DNA of 10,800 bases, taken from assembly GCA_003144275.1 (NCBI GenBank), contig NJBF01000072.1:1-10800 (forward strand), read 5' to 3'. The notes under the pieces were generated by a model. It saw only the letters and a program-made list of their open reading frames with translations. It was not told where the DNA came from and did no database searches. The DNA comes from Candidatus Heimdallarchaeota archaeon B3_Heim. Its GTDB lineage: Archaea > Asgardarchaeota > Heimdallarchaeia > Hodarchaeales > Hodarchaeaceae. The position numbers and the translations under genes were made by a program. Positions 1-10,800 of this stretch are shown one piece after another (the first letter of the stretch is position 1; every line of letters starts with the position of its first letter).

Positions 1-1590
1 TGGAGGAGGAGCTACTAAAGGATCCGCAATAAAGGGACCACTTAAACAATCGGATGGTGTCCAGGTATACGTTAACCCACCTGTAGCCCTTAACTGGGCA
101 GTGTCTCCAAAACAACGGAAAACGGACTGAGATCCTGTCTCGACAACAATAACTGATCCCCTCGATTCTGCATAGTCTGAAAAATATCCGTACTTACAAC
201 CCGTTGTACTTCCTCCTTCAATCAAACCCAGATGAAAGACACTGGCTGAATTGGTGATTTTAACTACCTCATCTTGCGGGACACCCCCCCCGGTAGCATT
301 GACAAATAATTTATTCGCATCTTTCAAACATACAAAACCTGTAGCTCCAACCGGTTCAAACCAGCTTCCGGGGATATCAAAAGTACTTCCATCCTCATAA
401 TGCATCGTAAATGCATTTTTTGCAGGATCGGTTGTCATGATATTCAGGTAAAAACTTTCGTCTGTGGATCGGGTAAAGCTTACTTCCAGTGATCCGGTGC
501 ATCCGTCGATAGTTGGCAAAACAGCACCGCCAAACTCACATCCAAAACCTGATACATGCAATACCATAATAGGCTTATCGCCTTCGATATGAGTGGAATT
601 ATAAAGAAGTTCAAAATCTACCTGTTGACCCGGATTGGCCAGGTTGGCATAGGAAGCTCCGTCAATAAAAACCTCGGTATTAGGTTGCGTTGCCATAATA
701 AACACCCGTTCTCCAGATGGATCACCGTCATTAAGAGGGTTATTGGTCAGATTAATTTTACCCCGCATAACAATGTATTCATATCCCACAATACTGCGGT
801 TATCCGCACGACGTAACGGAACAGTCTGATCACCGACCAGGTCTCTGCAGCCTTTCGGTTCAGCCCATACTGAGTCATCTTTTATAGAAACGGCTATGGG
901 TTTGTTTGACACTATATGAGTGCCGCCTAAATGATCCGCTGCCAATTGGGTGGTTGTCACACAGGAGTATGTTTCTCCCCTGTTTAATGTTATATTAAAG
1001 GGAATTCCTGCCTGTCCCCCAATGATATCGGCTGTGGGAGTTATGGTAACTACGGTATTGTCTTCCGTTGCTACGACATCAATTGATGAATAGGGTTGTA
1101 CCGGGTTATAATTTCCATTCCGCCAGACTTCATTAAAAGGAGTATAGAATTCGTAACCAAGTGCGTTTTTACCCTTTAAGGCAAATATATCCCTGTTGTA
1201 ATATTCGTCTTCATCGTAATATACAGTAATCAGGTTTGTGGATGTAATATGAATCCCTTTGTTCAGGATGATACCCCCGGGAGAATTTTCCAGATCACCT
1301 ATCCATGGTGTTGCATCGATGGATACGGTAGTATTGGCAGGAACATAAAAGGTTGTATCGAAACCGGCAGGTCTTGCTGGTTGGTAAATCCTTACGGTAC
1401 TGGGCAGACCTAAGGCAGAAACCCGGAAATAAACAGGTTCTCCTCCCGGACATGTAGCACCTACGCAGTGACTTACGGTTACTTCAGGAGCTACAAACCA
1501 GAATTCATCATCAGTCTGGGAAAAACCAGTAACGCAGGATAAAAGGAAAATGAAAGAATAGAAAACCTTATTTATTCCTGACATATCCAT
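1..1590 (-). CDS. Secreted IgGFc-binding N-terminal-domain protein (IgGFc_binding/PF17517-like), probably a large T9SS/gliding-CTD surface protein; 3'-partial (continues beyond position 1)
   Basis: Hand translation of the minus strand from ATG 1590 (alternative in-frame ATG 1584; in-frame TAA immediately upstream) is open for 530 codons to the window edge. It begins MDMSGINKVFYSFIFLLSCVTGFS|QTDDEFWFVAPEV (signal peptide, Gln at +1). It contains KGIHITSTNLITVYY, DIFALKGKNALGYEFYTPF, IDVVATEDNTVVTITP, GGTHIVSNKPIAVSIKDDS, DLVGDQTVP, GYEYIV, ERVFIMATQPNTEV and GCEFGGAVLP, typical of Bacteroidota IgGFc-binding proteins. It ends in an Ig/SprB-like start (AQLRATGGLTYTWTP). It is missing from the supplied track, probably because there is no stop in the window. 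Confidence 0.9.
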   Translation of the reverse strand, partial: MDMSGINKVFYSFIFLLSCVTGFSQTDDEFWFVAPEVTVSHCVGATCPGGEPVYFRVSALGLPSTVRIYQPARPAGFDTTFYVPANTTVSIDATPWIGDLENSPGGIILNKGIHITSTNLITVYYDEDEYYNRDIFALKGKNALGYEFYTPFNEVWRNGNYNPVQPYSSIDVVATEDNTVVTITPTADIIGGQAGIPFNITLNRGETYSCVTTTQLAADHLGGTHIVSNKPIAVSIKDDSVWAEPKGCRDLVGDQTVPLRRADNRSIVGYEYIVMRGKINLTNNPLNDGDPSGERVFIMATQPNTEVFIDGASYANLANPGQQVDFELLYNSTHIEGDKPIMVLHVSGFGCEFGGAVLPTIDGCTGSLEVSFTRSTDESFYLNIMTTDPAKNAFTMHYEDGSTFDIPGSWFEPVGATGFVCLKDANKLFVNATGGGVPQDEVVKITNSASVFHLGLIEGGSTTGCKYGYFSDYAESRGSVIVVETGSQSVFRCFGDTAQLRATGGLTYTWTPSDCLSGPFIADPLVAPPP

Positions 1591-1780: not shown

Positions 1781-4700
1781 ATGAGAAATATCATAGTATT
1801 AACAGGGGTCATACTCCTTAATTCAGCGTTTATTCAAGCCCAGGATACCATCTTTTTTGAAAATTTCGATGCAAGTCCCGGAGAAAAACCTCCAGATTGG
1901 ACTACAGAACTGGAAGGACCTCCAGCGTCAAAATGGGATTTTGTTAATGGAGGAGGCACAAAGTTCCCTGATACTCCGGGTAGCAGAAGACCTCCCAGCG
2001 CATATAGTGATACTGTAAATGCTTTGTTTTTTTTTGAAAGTCTGGGAAGTGAATCTGAATATCTGATCACACCTCCCATCGATCTGGAATTTGCTGTTAA
2101 AACGGAGCTGAGATTCCGGCATGCACAGAAAGAAGGTGATTTAGGTTTCGGTCTGGCCAATGATGAATTAAGAGTGTACTACAAGACCCATATTGACAGC
2201 CCCTGGGTTGAAACAAGAAAAATTGGGGAATATACCGATGCAGTGGAAGAATGGACAGAACAAACCATATTAATTCCATCTGAAGCATTCAGTCCTACCT
2301 GTTACTTTGGATTCAAGGCAACAACAAAATACGCCTGGGGTGTATGCATTGATGATGTAACTGTTGTTGAAACAGGTGTTTTACAAAGGCATGTAGACTA
2401 CGTTAGCATCTTTCATGAAAATACGTATCCGGTACCAACCGGTTCGAAAAATAATCCCGTATTACGGATTACCATTCGGGTATTAGGTAATACAGGAGAT
2501 GTAACCCTAAATTCACTAACAGTTAAATCCCTGAACTCCTCGGATAATGATATCCCTGCCGAGGGAGTTAAGTTATTTTATCATTATTCTTCCAAAAATT
2601 TTTATGCATCCGTTCCCTGCGATACGATTTCTTTGTCATCCGGGTATGGAACTTTCGAAGACATAAACCTGGCTTTACCTACAGGATATACCTACCTGTG
2701 GGTAACCTGTGATGTAAAATCCGATGCAATACATGGTCATTATATCGATGCAGCGATTGAAACAAATAACATTGATATAAACGGGAGTACCTATCCTGCT
2801 TCCGATGAATCTCCCACCGGAGAAAGAATTATCCGGGAGGCGGTTTTTTTCGATGACTTTACTATCGATCAGGGCTGGACACTTTCCGGTGATTTTCAGC
2901 GCAGCAGACCTCTCGGCCTGGGTGGAAAAGATATAGGAAATCCTGACCCTCAACATGCAGCAGGTGATACCATGATTATCGGAAATGATCTTACAGGCCT
3001 GGGTGCAATTGAAGGAGATTACGAACCAGAAGTAGCCAGGTATGACAATCTGGCAACTTCACCAACGTTTGATTTATTTTATTTTAATGATGTAAAATTA
3101 AGTTTTTTGAGATGGCTTAATGTTGAGAATTCCGATACGGCTTCGATTGAATTAAGTACAGACAATGGCAGCTCATGGGATGAGATCTGGTCAAATTCCA
3201 ACAATGTGATAACAGACAATGCATGGAATCAAATTAGTTTAAATATTCCGGATGCACACAGGAAATCGGAAACAAAAATTAGAATTAATCTGGGGCCCAC
3301 CACCTTATACAATCACTTTTCCGGGTGGAACATTGAAAATTTTGCTGTTACAGGCAATTATATTGAATATGATGTTGGACCGGTTACCCTGCTTGCTCCG
3401 GGTGATGGATGCGGGCACTCATCCGCTGATACGGTTACCATAAAAGTAAAAAATTACGGGCCGGGTTCCACACCCGGTAAAATTCCTGTTAAATATTCTT
3501 TCGATGGAGGCTCATCTTATACAAATGATACCATTAACGGAGCTATTCCTTTCGACAACGAGATTACGTATACCTTTAGTCTAAAAATCGATTTATCCGA
3601 TCCGGGGATTTATAATGTGATCATTGAAACCGCATTGGATGTGGATGAAGAAATAACGAATAATACATTTGATACAGTATTATACGTAGATCCTACTTAT
3701 CCTTTACCTTATTACCAGAATTTTGAGAACGGAGAGGATTTCTGGAGAGCAACCGGAACAAATGCATCCTGGGGATACGGAAGTCCCTCAGGATCTGTAA
3801 TCACAGATGCAGCTTCAGAACCAATGGCCTGGGTGACCAAACTGACAGGAAATTATAATAATGATGAAGATTCATATTTAACGGGTCCCTGCTTTGACCT
3901 GTCAGGTATTGACTATCCTGTTTTTGAATGCAACATATTTACGCATACAGAGAACGATATAGATGGAGCGAATGTGGAATATTCCCTTGATAACGGTACC
4001 ACCTGGGTTCGCTTAGGCGATAAAGATGACGGGGATACATACAATTGGAATTGGTATAATTCCGATGTTATTACAGCATTAACCGGAAATCATGGATGGA
4101 CAGGTGAAGGTCCAGGGTGGAAAACGGCAAGAATATTCTTAGATACAACGATTTTCAGAAACCAACCAGGTGTTAAATTCCGGATTCATTTTTCCAGTAA
4201 TGGATCTGACACATTTGAAGGAATCGGAATTGATGACATCAGAATATACGATGCACCAAGAGACGTTGGAGTTATTTCTATTGATAGTCCGGTTTCAGCG
4301 TGTGCCCAGGATGTAGGAGATCATGTTGTCATAACGATTCAAAACTTTGGGTTGGATACCTTAATGACGGGTGATACGATCATTGTGGGATATGATTTTG
4401 AATCGGATCCAACTGTAATTGACACATTTGAACTCACCAGCCACTTAATAAGAAATGAAACGGTACAATATACATTTAATAAATATTTCACTGTAACATC
4501 TTCTGGTACAAAAAATATAGAAGCCTTTACTTTACTGCCTGATGATATTGATTTTTACAACGAAACCACAACGAATGATACAACATCAACCACGTTCGAG
4601 GTGTGGATTACATCGTTTATATCGTTACCTCCACATATCTATACTGTACGGCCGGATACTGTTATCCTGAATGCTTATACAGGTATCCCCACCGATACCT

Positions 4701-6751
4701 ATTTATGGCAGGATCTTTCTACCACCGATTCTGTGTTTCATGTTGCTGAAAAAGCGGATGGTATCTATCATGTTGTGGTAAGTAATGGAATTTGTGATTT
4801 CCGTGATACAACGTATATCTATTTTCTTATCGCTGATGCAGGAGTAACGGAAATAATCCATCCGGTTTCTGATTGTGAACTTGGCAGTTCGGTATTACCC
4901 CAGGTAAAAATTAAAAATTTTGGTACGGATACGCTGCAAATAAACGATGAAATTACGGTAGGATATAAGGTTGACAGCGATCCGGAAGTAGAAGAAATTT
5001 TTACTTTAACCGACGTGTTGTATCCGGATAGTACGGTGATTTATACCTTTCTTACAGCTGTTGACATGTCTGACATTCAAACGTATTCGATTGCAGCCTA
5101 CACCATATTGACTGATGATGATACAACTTATAATGATACTACTATAACCAATGTTGAAGTTTATGGATATACAGCCATTGACCTTGGTTCAAATGTAGTT
5201 GTCAGAGCTCTTGATTATACGATTGATGCAGGTTCCGGATATGATTCTTATGAATGGCAGGACGAATCAACCAATCAAACTCTTACGGTGGATACTACCG
5301 GTTGGTATACGGTAACGGTGAAGCAGGGTACAAAATGTGAAAATTCGGATTCAGTGCATGTAACAATAATCATCCCGGATATAAAAATTGATAAGTTTTA
5401 TAGTCCAACCAATGCATGCGGACTTTCCACTACGGAGTCCCTTGAGCTGTATGTTAAGAATGTTGGTTCTGACACACTATTTGTAAATGATACCATTGCA
5501 TTCATATACCAGTTAAATGGCGGTTCAACAGTTTACGATACATTGTTTTTGGACAACCAGGTATTGCCCGGGGATTCTGTATTGTTTGCGTTTACCGATA
5601 AGGAAAATATGAATGCAACCGGAAGTTATAGTTTTGTTGTACAGGCAAATTACAATAAGGACCTTATTCCGGCGAATAATACAATAAATCAAACCGTTGA
5701 AGTTTATGGTGATACAACTGTTTCGCTGGGATCAGACGCAGTGAGCGATACAGTAAATTATACACTGGATACAGGTGTTGATTACGATTCATATTTGTGG
5801 CAGGATGGTTCAACGGAAAGGTATTATACGGTGAACTATCATAACCAAACAGCGAACCAAAATTATTCGGTGACGGTTACTGACGAACATGGATGTTTCG
5901 GCTCTGACACAATTCAGGTAACATTTTTCCTTCCGAATATTGGAATCAGTAATATCCTGAATCCTATCTCTAATTGTATTTTGAGTGATCAGGAGCAAAT
6001 CATTGCACATATCCGGAATTTTGGCAGCATAACGGTTGAAAATAAACAAACTCAGATTGGTGTAATGATTGACGGTGGAACTGCTATTATTGAACAAACG
6101 ACTATTTCTCAAAGTCTTGAACCGGACGAGTATATTGTGTATACGTTTGACGGTTTGTTCGATTTTTCAACACAAAAAGTGTACAATGTCAAAGTATTTA
6201 CGGTTTATGGAAATGACGGTGTCGCTACCGATGATACTTTAAATATAAACATCACACATTATAATCATCCATCAGTGAATCTCGGAGGTGTGAATGATAC
6301 AATTATATCATCACTACCTTATACACTGGATGCTGGAGCTGGGTATGAAAATTATGAATGGAATGGTTCTGAAGGAACACAAACGTATAATGTTATTGCG
6401 ATAGGCTGGTATAAAGCAGTTGTAACGGATACCAATGGTTGTACGGGATTGGATTCAGTATATGTAACAAGCCCGGCAAGCATACCTGGTGTTAAAGGCA
6501 TCCAGGGCGAATTAATCATTATTCCGAATCCGGCAAATGAATTTCTATATGTAGAATTTAAGGGATTAAAAACCATGAGTTATATTCTTGAATTGATCAA
6601 TGAAAGAGGCCAGTTGGTCTATATTAAGGAATATAAATTTGTAAACAGACTAAATGAATCATTGGATGTGTCACATCTGACCAGTGGTGTTTACTATTTG
6701 AGGATCAGGACCAATGAGCAGCAGGAAGTACGGAAAATAATTATTCAATAG
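1781..6751 (+). CDS. 1656-aa T9SS type-A sorting-domain surface protein (adhesin-like; jelly-roll, CARDB-like and Ig-like modules)
   Basis: Signal peptide MRNIIVLTGVILLNSAFIQA|Q. Three MAM/cleaved-adhesin-like jelly-roll domains (FFENFD...IDDVTV; FFDDF...WNIENF; YYQNFE...IGIDDIRI). One BNR_assoc_N-like domain (YPVPTGSKNNPVLRITI...YTYLWVTCDVKSDA). Five CARDB-like units (D-V/A-G...P...C...KNxG). Four short Ig units (LG...DAGxGYxxYxW...Y.V.V...C..SD). C-terminal IIPNPANEFLYV...LDVSHLTSGVYYLRI...RKIIIQ matches the Por/T9SS CTD. Confidence 0.93.
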   Translation: MRNIIVLTGVILLNSAFIQAQDTIFFENFDASPGEKPPDWTTELEGPPASKWDFVNGGGTKFPDTPGSRRPPSAYSDTVNALFFFESLGSESEYLITPPIDLEFAVKTELRFRHAQKEGDLGFGLANDELRVYYKTHIDSPWVETRKIGEYTDAVEEWTEQTILIPSEAFSPTCYFGFKATTKYAWGVCIDDVTVVETGVLQRHVDYVSIFHENTYPVPTGSKNNPVLRITIRVLGNTGDVTLNSLTVKSLNSSDNDIPAEGVKLFYHYSSKNFYASVPCDTISLSSGYGTFEDINLALPTGYTYLWVTCDVKSDAIHGHYIDAAIETNNIDINGSTYPASDESPTGERIIREAVFFDDFTIDQGWTLSGDFQRSRPLGLGGKDIGNPDPQHAAGDTMIIGNDLTGLGAIEGDYEPEVARYDNLATSPTFDLFYFNDVKLSFLRWLNVENSDTASIELSTDNGSSWDEIWSNSNNVITDNAWNQISLNIPDAHRKSETKIRINLGPTTLYNHFSGWNIENFAVTGNYIEYDVGPVTLLAPGDGCGHSSADTVTIKVKNYGPGSTPGKIPVKYSFDGGSSYTNDTINGAIPFDNEITYTFSLKIDLSDPGIYNVIIETALDVDEEITNNTFDTVLYVDPTYPLPYYQNFENGEDFWRATGTNASWGYGSPSGSVITDAASEPMAWVTKLTGNYNNDEDSYLTGPCFDLSGIDYPVFECNIFTHTENDIDGANVEYSLDNGTTWVRLGDKDDGDTYNWNWYNSDVITALTGNHGWTGEGPGWKTARIFLDTTIFRNQPGVKFRIHFSSNGSDTFEGIGIDDIRIYDAPRDVGVISIDSPVSACAQDVGDHVVITIQNFGLDTLMTGDTIIVGYDFESDPTVIDTFELTSHLIRNETVQYTFNKYFTVTSSGTKNIEAFTLLPDDIDFYNETTTNDTTSTTFEVWITSFISLPPHIYTVRPDTVILNAYTGIPTDTYLWQDLSTTDSVFHVAEKADGIYHVVVSNGICDFRDTTYIYFLIADAGVTEIIHPVSDCELGSSVLPQVKIKNFGTDTLQINDEITVGYKVDSDPEVEEIFTLTDVLYPDSTVIYTFLTAVDMSDIQTYSIAAYTILTDDDTTYNDTTITNVEVYGYTAIDLGSNVVVRALDYTIDAGSGYDSYEWQDESTNQTLTVDTTGWYTVTVKQGTKCENSDSVHVTIIIPDIKIDKFYSPTNACGLSTTESLELYVKNVGSDTLFVNDTIAFIYQLNGGSTVYDTLFLDNQVLPGDSVLFAFTDKENMNATGSYSFVVQANYNKDLIPANNTINQTVEVYGDTTVSLGSDAVSDTVNYTLDTGVDYDSYLWQDGSTERYYTVNYHNQTANQNYSVTVTDEHGCFGSDTIQVTFFLPNIGISNILNPISNCILSDQEQIIAHIRNFGSITVENKQTQIGVMIDGGTAIIEQTTISQSLEPDEYIVYTFDGLFDFSTQKVYNVKVFTVYGNDGVATDDTLNINITHYNHPSVNLGGVNDTIISSLPYTLDAGAGYENYEWNGSEGTQTYNVIAIGWYKAVVTDTNGCTGLDSVYVTSPASIPGVKGIQGELIIIPNPANEFLYVEFKGLKTMSYILELINERGQLVYIKEYKFVNRLNESLDVSHLTSGVYYLRIRTNEQQEVRKIIIQ
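4262..6470 (+). repeat. Four tandem intragenic protein repeats (CARDB-like + Ig-like), about 181-191 aa each
   Basis: Unit starts at 4262 (DVGVISIDSPVSAC), 4835 (DAGVTEIIHPVSDC), 5378 (DIKIDKFYSPTNAC) and 5936 (NIGISNILNPISNC), giving periods of 573, 543 and 558 nt. Each unit has xxNxG, N/D-D/N-T and a YxW motif (YLWQD, YEWQD, YLWQD, YEWNG). DNA-level identity is low, so the repeats are old. Confidence 0.85.
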
Positions 6752-7340: not shown

Positions 7341-7676
7341 TCAGAGAGCTTCTTTAAACATTACCGTTGGATGAATTCCTCCCATTATCACATTTATTCC
7401 CCGTTTCCTGAATTCATCTGCTATCTCATACCCTCTTTTTGCAGTATGCGTAACTGCAGTGATACCAACAAGATCTGCCTTTTCATCGAAATTCACCGTA
7501 TCCCTGGGTTCTTGTATAATTTTTATCTCCCAATCAGGCGGCGTTAAACCTGCAAGCACTCCAAGAGCTAAAGGTGGAACATCAAAATATTCTTTACGAG
7601 CACTGTTCTCAAGAATTTGGAATTTTTTCTTTTGAGTTACCAGTTGGCTGGTAGGCTCAATTAGAAGAAGTTTCAT
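7341..7676 (-). pseudogene. Truncated B12-binding-domain radical SAM protein (cobalamin-binding domain only)
   Basis: MKLLLIEP...PPLALGVLAGLTPPDWEIKII...DLVGITAVTHTAKRGYEIADEFRKRGINVIMGGIHPT is the classic N-terminal cobalamin-binding domain of class B radical SAM enzymes. TGA follows EAL, there is no CxxxCxxC domain, and I found no convincing continuation in any downstream frame. ATG 7676 (poly-A upstream) is preferred over GTG 7688. Confidence 0.82.
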
Positions 7677-7853
7677 TTTTTTTCTCACTTAAATAAATGG
7701 TTTTTCCGAAGTCTCTGTAATAATACTTCATGGACCTTATTACATTTTCATAATTTATTGTCGAGTTTAAACGAAGCTATTAGTTTTAATAACAAATCAT
7801 AAGTTCCTTTGTTCTTGAGAAGTTGAGATGCGATTGATACTACAAAAATTTAA

Positions 7854-8651
7854 TTATTCGTACCATTTAGAGTGTTGGGTCTTACAAAGTACACGATAGA
7901 CAAGACCGGGAAAAAGGCACTGCAGGAAACTCGTGGTTTTACCAAGAAGTGTGAGCGTCATCATGAATCTTTTCTTCCTGATCATTTTGAGAACCGCGCA
8001 TGCAACTTCCTCTGCAGTTTGATGACCTTTTCTTTTTATACTAACATATGAACCATCCGGATAAAGGACTTTTTTATCAGGATAATTCTTGACAAAACCT
8101 GCACGAAGAAGACCGATGTGCACCTTGCTTTTCGCGAGCTCGATACGTAGCGATTGTGCAAGAGCAGTCAAGCCAATTTTTGCGACGCAATAAGGAGACA
8201 TGTTTGGTTGGCCGTGGATACTTGCTATGGTTGAGATAAAGATGATGCTCCCTTGTGTCTCTCGTATCGCAGGAAGTGCTGCTTGTGTGCAATAGACCCC
8301 ACTCATCAAGTTCGCGTCGACAACACTCTTGAAAAATTCTGCATTAATGTTCTCAAATCGTCCTCTCATTGAAAGGCCTGCATTGTTGATAAGATAATCA
8401 ATCCTGCCGAATTGTTTTGTTGTTGTATTAACAAGCCGTTTGCAATTTTGGGGTTTGGTGATATCGCCAACAATTGCCAATGGATGATACCCTTTGTTCT
8501 TGAACTCTTCCTTTATCGCATTGAGCTGTTCCTTATTTCTTTCATTGATGACGACATTCGCACCATGCTTAAGGAAAACAAATGCAATTGCCTTACCAAT
8601 GCCTTTGCTCGAACCTGTCACGATAACTGTTTTATTTTTGAAACTTTTCAT
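7854..8651 (-). CDS. Classical SDR family NAD(P)-dependent oxidoreductase (265 aa)
   Basis: Shows TGSSKGIG (TGxxxGxG), DYLINNAG, a catalytic Ser in FISTIAS, and YCVAK (YxxxK). Basic residues in the Gly-rich loop (K) and after beta-2 (R) suggest NADP(H) preference. Substrate is not assignable. Confidence 0.93.
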   Translation of the reverse strand: MKSFKNKTVIVTGSSKGIGKAIAFVFLKHGANVVINERNKEQLNAIKEEFKNKGYHPLAIVGDITKPQNCKRLVNTTTKQFGRIDYLINNAGLSMRGRFENINAEFFKSVVDANLMSGVYCTQAALPAIRETQGSIIFISTIASIHGQPNMSPYCVAKIGLTALAQSLRIELAKSKVHIGLLRAGFVKNYPDKKVLYPDGSYVSIKRKGHQTAEEVACAVLKMIRKKRFMMTLTLLGKTTSFLQCLFPGLVYRVLCKTQHSKWYE

Positions 8652-8901
8652 CTGTGATACACGTTCTCCTTAAACTAAACTTGATGTTGATAATAAAAGC
8701 AGGCAAAACGGCTAAAATTTAAAGTGTTTCACAAAATTGTTCCTCTTGGATATAGTCAGATATAAGAAAGCCTATTTTGAAAAATCATTTGAAACCATAT
8801 TTTATTTTGAAATCATAATACTAGTCTAAAATTATCCTAACCTTAACTCCTTCTTATGCAGCTTTATAAATAAAAAAAACGAAGTCTTGGAAAAAAAATA
8901 G

Positions 8902-8961
8902 AAATTTCAAAATCCAAAAATCAAAATCCCAAATAAATCCCAATTAAAGAAATCCCAAAAT
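8902..8961. repeat. Degenerate short tandem repeat tract AAAT(C)1-3AA
   Basis: AAATCCCAA is exact at 8924-8932, 8935-8943 and 8950-8958. Variants are AAATTTCAA 8902-8910, AAATCCAA 8910-8917 and AAATCAA 8918-8924. It resembles the TTTGGGATTT/AAATCCCAAA tracts I recall flanking four-helix-bundle genes in Bacteroidota. Confidence 0.8.
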
Positions 8962-8984
8962 GAATAATAAATTAATTTTGTTGC

Positions 8985-10634
8985 ATGAAACACAAAGATA
9001 AACTATGCAACCATTATAATGAAATTTTAGATGGAACCTATGACTGCATTGACAGATTAGTTCTAAATGGTTACTTTTCACAGGGTTGTTCACCTGGAGG
9101 TTTTAGAACCTGGTTCAGGGCTTTTAAAGGGTCAGACAAAGATTTGAATAATGCAACTTTAATGAGAATGGCCGGGAGGTTTAGCAGACGAATTAATGCC
9201 TTTTGCAAGAAAAGAAATATACCATTACATTATTTCAAAACTGGAGAAAGAAAACATGAAAAAGCCGAAGAATTATTGCCAACAGATAAAAACTTTACAG
9301 GAATATTTGCCATATTCGTAGCAAGAGCACCAGGATCAGTTTGGGATATAAAAGAATTTGATAATGGGAAAATAGACATTCGTAAGAAGAAACCTTTACC
9401 TTTTATCAACCATTATTATTTCCATATAATAGATAAAAAGTGGGGACATATTACAATAAAGATGGCAGGTCATCCACCATTTGGTACTCAAATCATGTTA
9501 AACGGTCATGAGTGGGTAGAAAGGAGAAAAGCAGTACAAAAACTATCAATAATAAAAGAAGGTAATTGCTTTACAAGTTTTTCCAGCGGTGAAGCGCTAT
9601 CGAGAATTGCAGATACCTTAAGTATACAAAAAGGGCAACTTGAGAGTGTGTGTAACCGCTGGATTTATAAATGCCTGTGGTTTGGGCTGGATAAAGAAGA
9701 ACAGGAAAGGTCTGGTTTTAGGTATCAGTATTCTATTTATCAAGTAGAATATAGTCGTAATCTATTATTTAAAAGAGGAACACAATTAGATCAAATGTAT
9801 CAAAACCTTATTACTCTTTCCCGTGAACGACTTGATATAAAGAGGTTAAAAACTATTTTTGGCAGGAAATATCGCCCTCATAATCGCAAGCAAAAAGGTT
9901 CTGGTTTTGAAATACGTATAGAGAGACCTGATTATAATTTGACAATCTTTAAGATACACTTTGGCAAATTGACACTCAAATTGTATGATAAAGGCGAACG
10001 GGTTTTGAGAGCAGAAGTTGTAGTACACAATGCCAAAGAATTAAAGTGTAAACGAAGCGTCACGAATTTTATGGAGATAGTCAGCAAGCTACGTGTAATC
10101 ATGAATAGTTTTATGGATAATCTTTGCTACACACATGTATCCCTTTTGAAAGATGGTTCATTTGAGCAATTAACCAACCCAAGCCAAAAAGGAAAACAAA
10201 GACTTGCAGGAGTGGATATAAACAAAAGAAGAAACTTAGCCATCATGGAGTGTGTATTGGCGCTAGCCATTAAACCGAATGGTTATACTGCAAAAGACAT
10301 AGCGACTTTAATGAAGGAAAAGCTGAATAAAAAAGAAGCAACAGTATATTCATCAATCAAAGCTGCTTATGACATCAAGAAATTGAGAGGCAAAGGGTTG
10401 GTAGAAAAAACAGGCAAAAGCAGAAAGTACAAAACAACCAAAAGGGGTATGGAAACGATAATAGCAGTGTTGTCTTTAACTCAGAAAACTATACCTGCAA
10501 TATTGTCTTCCATTAATAAAGATGTTTTGGCTAAAAACCCTGAAGAAATGTGTGAAATAGATAAACTATATATCAACATAAGAGAAGAAATTAAAGCTAT
10601 AAATCAATGTTATGGCATAAAAGCATCAGCTTAA
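8985..10634 (+). CDS. Putative transposase of a poorly characterised family (549 aa, basic, C-terminal winged helix-turn-helix)
   Basis: Motifs GTYDCIDRLVLNGY, NHYYFHIIDKKWG..TIKM..HPPF..QIMLNGHEW, QVEYSRNLLF, LKLYDKGERVLRAEV and AYDIKKLRGKGLVEK..KSRKY..TKRG match a widespread family. From recall, its members are usually annotated as hypothetical, MarR-like or transposase. Genomic context (an abrupt junction into another gene) supports mobility. Confidence 0.75.
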   Translation: MKHKDKLCNHYNEILDGTYDCIDRLVLNGYFSQGCSPGGFRTWFRAFKGSDKDLNNATLMRMAGRFSRRINAFCKKRNIPLHYFKTGERKHEKAEELLPTDKNFTGIFAIFVARAPGSVWDIKEFDNGKIDIRKKKPLPFINHYYFHIIDKKWGHITIKMAGHPPFGTQIMLNGHEWVERRKAVQKLSIIKEGNCFTSFSSGEALSRIADTLSIQKGQLESVCNRWIYKCLWFGLDKEEQERSGFRYQYSIYQVEYSRNLLFKRGTQLDQMYQNLITLSRERLDIKRLKTIFGRKYRPHNRKQKGSGFEIRIERPDYNLTIFKIHFGKLTLKLYDKGERVLRAEVVVHNAKELKCKRSVTNFMEIVSKLRVIMNSFMDNLCYTHVSLLKDGSFEQLTNPSQKGKQRLAGVDINKRRNLAIMECVLALAIKPNGYTAKDIATLMKEKLNKKEATVYSSIKAAYDIKKLRGKGLVEKTGKSRKYKTTKRGMETIIAVLSLTQKTIPAILSSINKDVLAKNPEEMCEIDKLYINIREEIKAINQCYGIKASA

Positions 10635-10657
10635 TTATCCATAACATGTTACCAATA

Positions 10658-10675
10658 AGGCTCTTTTAAGAGCCT
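10658..10675. other. Perfect inverted repeat / hairpin at the putative element end
   Basis: AGGCTCTT-TT-AAGAGCCT, extendable to 10654-10679 with one mismatch. It is preceded by the perfect palindrome TAACATGTTA at 10642-10651. Confidence 0.85.
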
Positions 10676-10678
10676 AAT

Positions 10679-10800
10679 TATGCAAGAATGATATTCTCCA
10701 CTTGAACCCAATGCTATATTTAAAAAATTAAGATATTCTTTTATACTTCGTCTTGAATATCCTTCTGCAATATTTCTACTGATACTATGAGAAGAATCAA
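10679..10800 (-). pseudogene. Four-helix-bundle protein (23S rRNA IVP / TIGR02436-like), interrupted; 5' part lies beyond the window
   Basis: The minus frame from 10798 reads DSSHSISRNIAEGYSRRSIKEYLNFLNIALGSSGEYHSCI. SxxxNIAEGyxRxsxxeyxxFLxIAxGSxxE is the family signature. After HSCI the frame runs into the hairpin (IRLLKEPYW*, stop 10649-10651) instead of the expected last helices. Confidence 0.88.

Follow-up and report, generated by a model that had tools for sequence, protein, structure and literature searches.

Initiators of the Rep_trans class nick DNA with a tyrosine that lies on a β-strand, and their active site is built from five motifs in which a metal is held by the Asp of motif N′, the Asp of motif I and the Glu of motif IV (PMC4797284, PMC5714925). 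In reviews, Rep_trans enzymes appear only as initiators of plasmids, phages and conjugative elements (PMC5714925, PMC4797284, PMC13107129); those compared here are RepC/RepD of PF02486 (pT181/pC221), RepSTK1 (4CIJ), RepDE (4CWC), RstA (CTXphi), the MOB_T relaxases NicK (ICEBs1) and Orf20 (Tn916), together with the related Phage_CRI family (PF05144). A second point of reference is Rep-Arvir, an experimentally working archaeal rolling-circle initiator in which a nuclease of the TATA-binding protein (TBP) fold is combined with a MarR-like winged helix-turn-helix (wHTH) domain (PMC13107129). The stretch of DNA analysed here, called the window, is an entire contig of 10,800 nucleotides (NJBF01000072.1, our C81) of the assembly GCA_003144275.1, deposited as Candidatus Heimdallarchaeota archaeon B3_Heim; C81 is one of the 103 contigs of a genome of Bacteroidota type. 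Its open reading frame (ORF) at 8985-10634 (+) quite probably encodes the transposase of an insertion sequence (IS)-like element, an enzyme that appears to be a TBP-fold tyrosine nickase, distantly related in structure to Rep_trans and fused to a winged helix. An earlier note, made from the letters of the window, had proposed an IS-like element driven by a Rep_trans-type nickase outside the DDE and HUH (histidine-hydrophobic-histidine) classes, a reading that is now supported in silico. To our knowledge, rolling-circle or single-strand transposition has so far been known only for HUH enzymes, and full-text searches of PubMed Central and bioRxiv turned up no transposase described as Rep_trans-type or as having the TBP fold.

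We class the element as an insertion sequence that probably operates in the manner of IS200/IS605 or IS91 and whose enzyme, though similar to Rep_trans, stands outside PF02486. Like IS200/IS605 (HUH Y1 TnpA, "peel and paste") and IS91/ISCR (HUH Y2, rolling-circle), it is free of inverted repeats, has dissimilar ends that carry hairpins and inserts, without evident duplication, on the 3′ side of a short and specific word; the left cleavage word belongs to the flank and the right one to the element, and miniature derivatives and head-to-tail arrays occur. It differs from them in that its enzyme has neither the HUH motif nor the HUH fold, which resembles an RNA-recognition motif (RRM-like), in that the Tyr is on a strand, not a helix, and in that the recognition word is about 10 nt long (TAAG-NNN-CTA) and the same at both cuts. 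IS110/IS1111 elements (DEDD recombinase, bridge RNA) likewise lack inverted repeats, insert site-specifically and carry, ahead of the gene, a left end that is non-coding and structured, but neither a RuvC-like DEDD domain nor a Tnp C-terminal domain was found here by Pfam, NCBIfam or fold searches. From DDE/RNase H transposases the element is set apart by its lack of inverted repeats, by the absence of any NCBIfam IS match and by the absence of RNase H-like proteins from the best fold matches, although absence from such a list is weak evidence. Rep-Arvir/RepSNJ2 (DUF7845, PF25227), found in archaeal pleolipoviruses and plasmids, shares the domain plan described below: the N-terminal part is a nuclease of the TBP fold that has acidic residues and an invariant Tyr, a MarR-like wHTH occupies the middle, and an extension forms the C-terminus. 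It is tied to Rep_trans at the fold level only, as here. Its requirement for a downstream DNA hairpin (PMC13107129) would be a further likeness to this family. Rep-Arvir comes from archaea, where it replicates the genomes of viruses or plasmids, whereas the family described here is bacterial and transposon-like; the Tyr of Rep-Arvir stands in the context KHYYM, and its Pfam family, DUF7845, is unmatched by our family.

Mobility and distribution

The ORF is open and intact (1650 nt, 549 aa), its product is 100% identical to P0002, and the family to which it belongs spans at least six phyla and has thousands of members. A word-indexed search returned 5,791 homologues, from metagenome-assembled genomes (MAGs) labelled Patescibacteria, Spirochaetes, Chitinophagaceae and Bacteroidales, and an exhaustive HMMER search returned 4,039 representatives at 50% identity; among species-representative genomes, the gene is present in several phyla, including Bacteroidota, Thermodesulfobacteriota, Chloroflexota and a MAG labelled Acidithiobacillus. 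Long-read MAGs from two phyla show the copies in place: a Bacteroidia MAG holds exactly four and a deltaproteobacterial MAG exactly five, each set 99.4-100% identical over about 1.75-2.16 kb and embedded in unrelated flanks. Copies at least 99.5% identical to the element of the window (L003, L014, L050 and C17) occupy at least five different contexts, and the element is present in 17 public runs from at least six studies of sediment, subsurface, cold-seep and vent samples, each of which contains at least 78% of the sampled 31-letter words of the window. In run X1 the depth of the element is 66-95, about three times the 24.5 of the left flank. The general marks of an insertion sequence are thus present, namely a mobility gene as the only gene, near-identical copies at different sites and defined ends. 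The earlier note had made its reading hinge on the homologues, which could have been single-copy, syntenic and devoid of conserved ends; they are multi-copy and non-syntenic, and their ends are conserved. The orientation of the nine copies in the two long-read MAGs is uninformative with regard to replication, local GC skew being weak (-0.03 to +0.03, with mixed signs) and the copies few, and their co-orientation with neighbouring genes, 0.46-0.87, comes from too few copies to be read.

Contigs of 1.7-2.4 kb, the signature of a collapsed repeat, carry most of the homologues that the word-indexed search found. The many copies on such contigs would also suit a rolling-circle replicon that integrates into chromosomes. 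This would be a minimal plasmid or a satellite whose protein is a true replication initiator, whose joined right and left ends form the origin and whose chromosomal copies are integrated episomes. The fold and architecture described below are those of replication initiators, and the joined ends would have hairpins on either side of the cut site, like a double-strand origin. Such a replicon is nevertheless improbable: the terminal overlap that marks a circle is present in none of 38 whole small contigs, which moreover carry differing flanks, copies lie inside contigs of 0.16-2 Mb, and the circle joint appears in none of four runs. The replicon would share its chemistry with the transposon that we favor; what mainly separates the two is the fate of the circle.

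Predicted fold of the protein

The 549-aa protein is basic (pI 9.80; 102 K+R against 57 D+E) and contains no H-hydrophobic-H motif anywhere, as the earlier note had read it. Searches of Pfam, NCBIfam, PHROGs and PDB sequences with the protein and with profiles gave only weak wHTH matches; Y1_Tnp, Y2_Tnp and Rep models of Pfam or NCBIfam do not match the protein, the NCBIfam IS-family models (June 2026) do not match at E<=1, an ESM Atlas feature search gave no usable match, and PF02486 was not found in the 61 related genomes searched. An AlphaFold2 model built on an alignment of 47 sequences (23-100% identity) reaches a mean predicted local distance difference test score (pLDDT) of 85.6 at full length, and 90.8, with a predicted template-modelling score (pTM) of 0.89, for the N-domain alone (residues 1-388). 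This modelled N-domain is a TBP-like double repeat, on which four structure libraries agree. Against 48,161 PDB representatives (VIA-align), its top seven matches are five TBP or TBP-containing chains, at Z 9.1-7.3 (best 1mp9_B, Z 9.1, 179/189 residues aligned), and two Rep_trans chains, 4cij_A (Z 7.3, 192 aligned) and 4cwc_A (Z 7.0, 181 aligned), which are both of the Rep_trans representatives in that library. The top Foldseek match is RepSTK1 (4cij; E 7.7e-4, probability 0.92-0.96), the best match among Swiss-Prot models is NicK, the ICEBs1 relaxase, and a shape search of the ESM Atlas places the family's own unnamed clusters first, followed by Rep_trans, TBP and Phage_CRI clusters. An RNase H/DDE or HUH core, the outcome that the earlier note had named as fatal to its reading, was not found: the N-domain matches TBP and Rep_trans, and no RNase H-type or HUH protein is among the best rows of the four libraries, which by itself is weak evidence. 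Residues ~389-513 form a winged helix of the MarR/PadR type, with MarR, PadR and Rio2 wHTH matches at Z 9-9.7, in agreement with the C-terminal winged helix noticed before.

Proposed active site

The alignment of 47 homologues, which reaches down to 23% identity, singles out a set of invariant residues: D23, R24, G106, D150, G154, N173, N194, W226, Q253, E255, F262, Y334, R342, E344, R416 and Y462, with K332, K336 and L341 conserved in at least 90%. The motif on which the earlier note was built, LKLYDKGERVLRAEV (KLYDK...RAE), is present with the codons of Tyr334 (9984-9986), Arg342 (10008-10010) and Glu344 (10014-10016) where that note had put them, and its residues are conserved: the Tyr, Arg and Glu are among the invariant positions and Lys336 is among those conserved in at least 90%. 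Its statement that there is no obvious DDE triad stands as far as the fold goes, there being no RNase H fold, but understates the acidic residues, since D23, D150, E255 and E344 are invariant. The order of the family's residues, D...D...T...KxYxK...RxE, is that of Rep_trans motifs N′, I, II, III and IV (PMC5714925, PMC4797284):

Motif N′: Asp in Rep_trans; D23, on the first strand, in this family.
Motif I: RxD in Rep_trans; IxD150, without the Arg, in this family.
Motif II: T/SxY/ExG in Rep_trans; T320-x-F...G327, with looser spacing, in this family.
Motif III: YxK in Rep_trans (RxYxK in RepD); K332-x-Y334-x-K336, on strand 329-336, in this family.
Motif IV: W/LxRxE in Rep_trans; L341-R342-x-E344, on the paired strand 340-347, in this family.

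The corresponding positions in the window are as follows:

8985..10634 (+): putative transposase gene, 549 aa; residues 1-388 TBP-like/Rep_trans-like domain, 389-513 MarR/PadR-type winged helix, 514-549 C-terminal helices.
9051..9053 (+): codon of Asp23, invariant, on the first β-strand (15-31); proposed metal ligand of motif N′, likely equivalent to RepD D46.
9432..9434 (+): codon of the invariant Asp150, with which strand 140-150 ends; a putative metal ligand of motif I, likely equivalent to RepD D142.
9978..9992 (+): K332-L-Y334-D-K336, with the proposed catalytic Tyr, on strand 329-336; motif III, compare RepD R189-x-Y191-x-K193.
10008..10016 (+): R342-A-E344, the invariant RxE, on the neighbouring strand of the hairpin; motif IV, compare RepD R212-x-E214 (metal ligand).

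The likeness to Rep_trans thus comprises the TBP-like double-repeat β-sheet domain, a strand Tyr flanked by basic residues (K/RxYxK), an RxE on the next strand, two earlier conserved Asp in the same order and putatively equivalent, a separate DNA-binding domain and a cut site, as proposed here, beside hairpins. The differences are the lack of detectable sequence homology, a domain that is about twice as long (388 aa) and has large insertions, the missing Arg of motif I, and a way of life as a multi-copy chromosomal insertion sequence rather than as a plasmid, phage or conjugative element. The earlier note was also right to worry about the distance from YxK to RxE, which, counted from Tyr to Arg, is 8 residues in this family as against 21 in RepD and 15 in RepSTK1; the short spacing is explained by a tight β-hairpin in the model. 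Because the two strands form this hairpin, Y334, K332, K336, R342 and E344 are predicted to lie on the same face of the sheet.

Anatomy of the ends

A full element of the window's subfamily is 1869 bp long (L050) and consists of a left end (LE) of 177 nt, the 1650-nt gene, which is its single gene, and a right end (RE) of 42 nt. Its ends differ from each other and are direct, and terminal inverted repeats are absent. The RE is conserved family-wide, down to 45% protein identity. A hairpin of consensus ATCGACAA-N4-TTGTCGAT, with 82.5% of cells paired and a CG/UA exchange at one position, follows the stop codon, and about 10 nt beyond it sits TAAG-N-GCCTA, with counts of T60 A61 A62 G60 N G57 C54 C62 T63 A63 in 63 distinct copies. 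The base that follows varies in these copies (A 50, T 9, G 3, C 1), so the element ends at CTA; a CTAA target duplication, considered as an alternative, was replaced by this end with a next base that is usually A. A terminal mini-hairpin of the RE was dropped as a family-wide feature, since only 38% of cells pair; it is real only in the subfamily of the window. Public contigs leave the window's element at 10675-10678 into different flanks, and in runs X2 and X7 the right flank exists in uninterrupted form (...TTTATAGAAACTA/ATTATGC...), an empty site that shares only CTA with the element end.

At the other side, full copies have CTA directly before the LE, which then begins with two hairpins, the first of 9-13 bp with compensatory changes in 7 of 8 predicted pairs and the second GC-rich (GCCCC-loop-GGGGC). 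By consensus, the left flank just before the copies reads TAAG-NNN-CTA in direct orientation and so mimics the terminus of the RE: positions -10 to -7 of 53 distinct flanks count T37 A35 A49 G42, and TA[AG]G stands at exactly -10 in 28 of the 53, compared with 2-4 at other offsets. The CTA of the left flank was a search criterion and is therefore no independent evidence, and some of the 53 flanks are mutually related. A structured left end, non-coding, upstream of the gene and with two hairpins that covary, might suggest that the family is moved or guided by an RNA in the manner of the IS110 bridge RNA, the protein being another kind of recombinase; IS110 is also site-specific and free of inverted repeats. 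We consider this very improbable, as the fold searches of the PDB representatives and the ESM Atlas gave neither a DEDD/RuvC-like nor a serine/tyrosine-recombinase fold, the target's variable NNN has no obvious partner in the element, and an identical word at target and RE is more simply explained by recognition through the protein.

Some copies adjoin one another. In L063, L089 and L114 the left neighbour of the LE is the RE of another copy, with no DNA between them, and L105 has such a joint on its right side. Four of the five copies in the deltaproteobacterial MAG (L018, L020, L021 and L022, ~2045-2248) carry an extra 204-bp left segment that begins with CCCGGACAAGCCGG and ends with TAAGTTACTA; it has its own hairpin start and directly precedes the canonical left end, and a similar start follows the RE in L105. 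The segment looks like a miniature element that was struck by a full one, both now moving as a composite. The remaining copy, L019, was at one point taken to be 5′-truncated, a reading that we rejected: it is the canonical form, and it is the other four that carry the additional 204 bp.

Some copies depart from this plan on their left side. One subfamily (L096, L100, L106-L111, L082 and L025) has a module, GTTAGAGATAAATTCTCAGATTT-N6-TGTAAGAATCTA, about 45 nt to the left of the element, built like a right end from hairpin, spacer and TAAG-NNN-CTA; the module represents either a favored landing site or a piece of a longer composite element. L005 and L053 are without a canonical left end and have only 22 nt from the word TAAAGAGTCTA to the start codon, and L055, also without one, shares only about 35 nt upstream of the ATG. 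Such 5′-shortened copies with an intact right end seem to be recurrent, and a search by protein favors finding them.

Proposed mechanism

We posit that Tyr334 acts as the nucleophile, while Asp23, Asp150 and Glu344 would hold the metal and Lys332, Lys336 and Arg342 would line the site. One strand would be cut just 3′ of CTA in TAAG-NNN-CTA, leaving Tyr334 joined to the 5′ end of the downstream DNA; this word occurs at two places, oriented alike, once in the flank next to the left end and once as the element's last ten bases, and the hairpins beside each cut, together with the winged helix, would position the enzyme. Two routes could then free a single-strand circle: (i) an exchange of partners between the two cuts, or (ii) rolling-circle copying from the first word to the second. 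The RE-CTA/LE joint of the circle would rebuild one complete site, and the reverse reaction would insert the circle 3′ of a TAAG-NNN-CTA-like word, often the end of another copy. The enzyme would presumably need to act as a dimer; homodimer prediction of the N-domain returned a score of 0.00 and gives no verdict. Pasting of a circle 3′ of a similar word would produce head-to-tail arrays and leave no inverted repeats, and the scheme would account for the A after the cut, for landings behind the ends of other copies and for miniature and composite forms. The presence of the same word in the same orientation at both cut places, with hairpins beside it, follows the logic of strand-specific nickases (IS200/IS605, IS91 and rolling-circle origins) and not that of a two-ended DDE reaction. 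On balance, we lean towards a new mechanistic class, a single-strand or rolling-circle transposon that uses a non-HUH TBP-fold tyrosine nickase related to Rep_trans initiators and one word of about 10 nt (TAAG-NNN-CTA) at the element end and at the target.

Several observations weigh against this picture. The Z scores are middling (7-9), which supports the fold class of the modelled domain and is no proof of homology, and TBPs score slightly above the Rep_trans chains. At the level of sequence the relationship vanishes: the PF02486 profile (Pfam gathering score 29.6 bits) matches neither P0001 at E<=0.1 nor any of the 47 homologues at E<=1, Pfam and NCBIfam are unmatched for the 47 members, with no link to DUF7845, and comparison of the family profile with one of RepD by hhalign yields a probability of 0.3%, the RepD profile being shallow (homologues all at least 85% identical). 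The link to Rep_trans is thus one of predicted fold and motif order only, and the Rep_trans-type assignment of the earlier note holds for fold, residue order and the invariant Tyr but finds no counterpart in these profile searches. Within the motifs, motif I is IxD rather than RxD, motif II is differently spaced, motif III lacks the conserved trailing Glu of YxKxxE, and the invariant pair Q253/E255 has no described Rep_trans counterpart; the clustering of D23, D150, E344 and Y334 in space is deduced from strand positions in the model. A 3-bp CTA target duplication is indistinguishable by sequence from a CTA borne by the element. Finally, the public contigs of the four runs contain neither circle nor tandem joints, a result that does not speak for their absence, since rare forms are lost from contigs.

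Some of the same facts could be taken to mean that the element is mobile but its protein is no tyrosine nickase: D23, D150 and E255/E344 would then make up, on a TBP-like scaffold, a metal-dependent site for hydrolysis or strand transfer, and Tyr334 would be only structural or DNA-binding. That several carboxylates are invariant, that TBPs, although no enzymes, reach scores as high as those of Rep_trans, and that there is no sequence homology to Rep_trans would all fit. The ends, however, are direct and not inverted, which speaks against a two-ended cut of the DDE type, an RNase H-like match is absent from every library searched, and the strands with KxYxK and RxE copy the catalytic strands of Rep_trans. 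We therefore regard this explanation as unlikely and retain a tyrosine nickase as the preferred one.

The copy in the window

The remaining features of the element and its right flank are as follows:

8866..8984 (+): remainder of the left end and 5′ untranslated region, element positions 58/73-177 of the 177-nt LE; blastn matches to L003, L014 and L050 begin at 8866.
8880-8898 (+): second arm of a 19-nt inverted repeat, within the remaining left end.
10635..10676 (+): right end, 42 nt, with two hairpins and the terminal motif TAAGAGCCTA (10667-10676); the element stops after CTA.
10637-10656 (+): degenerate copy of the family-wide hairpin, within the RE.
10658-10663 / 10670-10675 (+): terminal hairpin AGGCTC/GAGCCT, within the RE; the last base of the element is A10676.
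10677..10800 (-): flank outside the element; it holds part of a gene for a four-helix-bundle protein (TIGR02436 positions 34-71, E 9e-12), severed at the insertion point.

The earlier note had correctly described an element with no terminal inverted repeats, a terminal hairpin and an abrupt junction with an unrelated gene; the unit exceeds the ORF (8866/8881-10676), and its left end is incomplete. Missing are element positions 1-57/72, that is, the first arm of hairpin 1 and hairpin 2. The exact border is slightly blurred: in an alignment with four full copies identity is solid from 8881, public contigs match the element only from 8874, and flank contigs depart at 8880. With its gene and right end intact, this copy could probably supply the enzyme, but its mobilisation from its own left end is probably precluded. 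The remaining left end also contains four or five AAATCC(C) repeats, 11-15 nt apart (8905-8965), which are kept in L003, L014, L050 and L052 and may serve as binding sites for protein or as a promoter region.

The genome holds at least two copies of the element. The second, in contig C17 of the same MAG (6489-6681), has a complete left end with the canonical junction AATAATAAGACACTA/TTTTTTTTCCAAG and runs off the end of the contig. C17 ends 121 nt past the left branch point, at which the two paths join, and C81 ends 124 nt beyond the RE; this is the pattern left by a de Bruijn assembler at a branched repeat, the window being unique DNA followed by a collapsed multi-copy repeat and a tip of k-mer length. 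Since both stops fit a branched repeat, the 8880/8881 junction is probably supported by reads in the source sample, and by the same argument the right flank need not come from the copy that has the left junction. Among public contigs none spans 8880/8881, and in runs X1 and X2 the DNA on the side of the short-chain dehydrogenase gene continues past 8880 into unrelated DNA (ATGGATATATGTTTC...) that is absent from the MAG, so the locus differs between populations. A real truncated copy is the probable explanation of the junction; an artefact or a minority form is a less likely, though by no means far-fetched, alternative.

On the right, the gene fragment (TIGR02436, 23S-IVS-type) has a depth of 277-334 in public runs X1, X2, X7 and X13, compared with 24.5 for the left flank, so the four-helix-bundle segment must itself be high-copy or widely shared. 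An orthologous empty site for the window's own flanks was found in none of 30 relatives, and a loose regular-expression scan of the genome for further ends returned mostly noise. C17 also contains a solitary RE-like remnant (1861-1905, 87% identical, ending in TTAAGAGCCTA) 4.6 kb upstream of its element copy.

The rest of the window holds other genes. An ORF at 1781-6751 (+) encodes a 1656-aa protein with a type IX secretion sorting tail (Por_Secre_tail) and with BNR/neuraminidase-associated and reelin-like domains, and an ORF at 1-1590 (-), open at the contig start and at least 530 aa long, has an IgGFc-binding-type domain; both products are large secreted surface proteins with no relation to the element. 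A 115-aa ORF at 7341-7688 (-), with a sub-threshold match to a B12-binding domain (30.9 bits, cut-off 32.1), adjoins the short-chain dehydrogenase gene (7854-8651).

Implications

Members of this family are invisible to Pfam, NCBIfam and ISfinder-type models and are annotated as hypothetical proteins or MarR regulators, and assemblies break at them unnoticed, as happened at the window. A compact, sequence-programmed nickase-ligase for single-stranded DNA with a 10-nt site could also become a tool, comparable to HUH tags. The classes of transposase are few, and each has opened a field. If our reading is correct, the element would add a further catalytic class beside DDE, DEDD, HUH, tyrosine and serine recombinases, and a single enzyme lineage would link insertion sequences with pT181-type plasmids, filamentous phages, MOB_T relaxases and the archaeal Rep-Arvir replicons.

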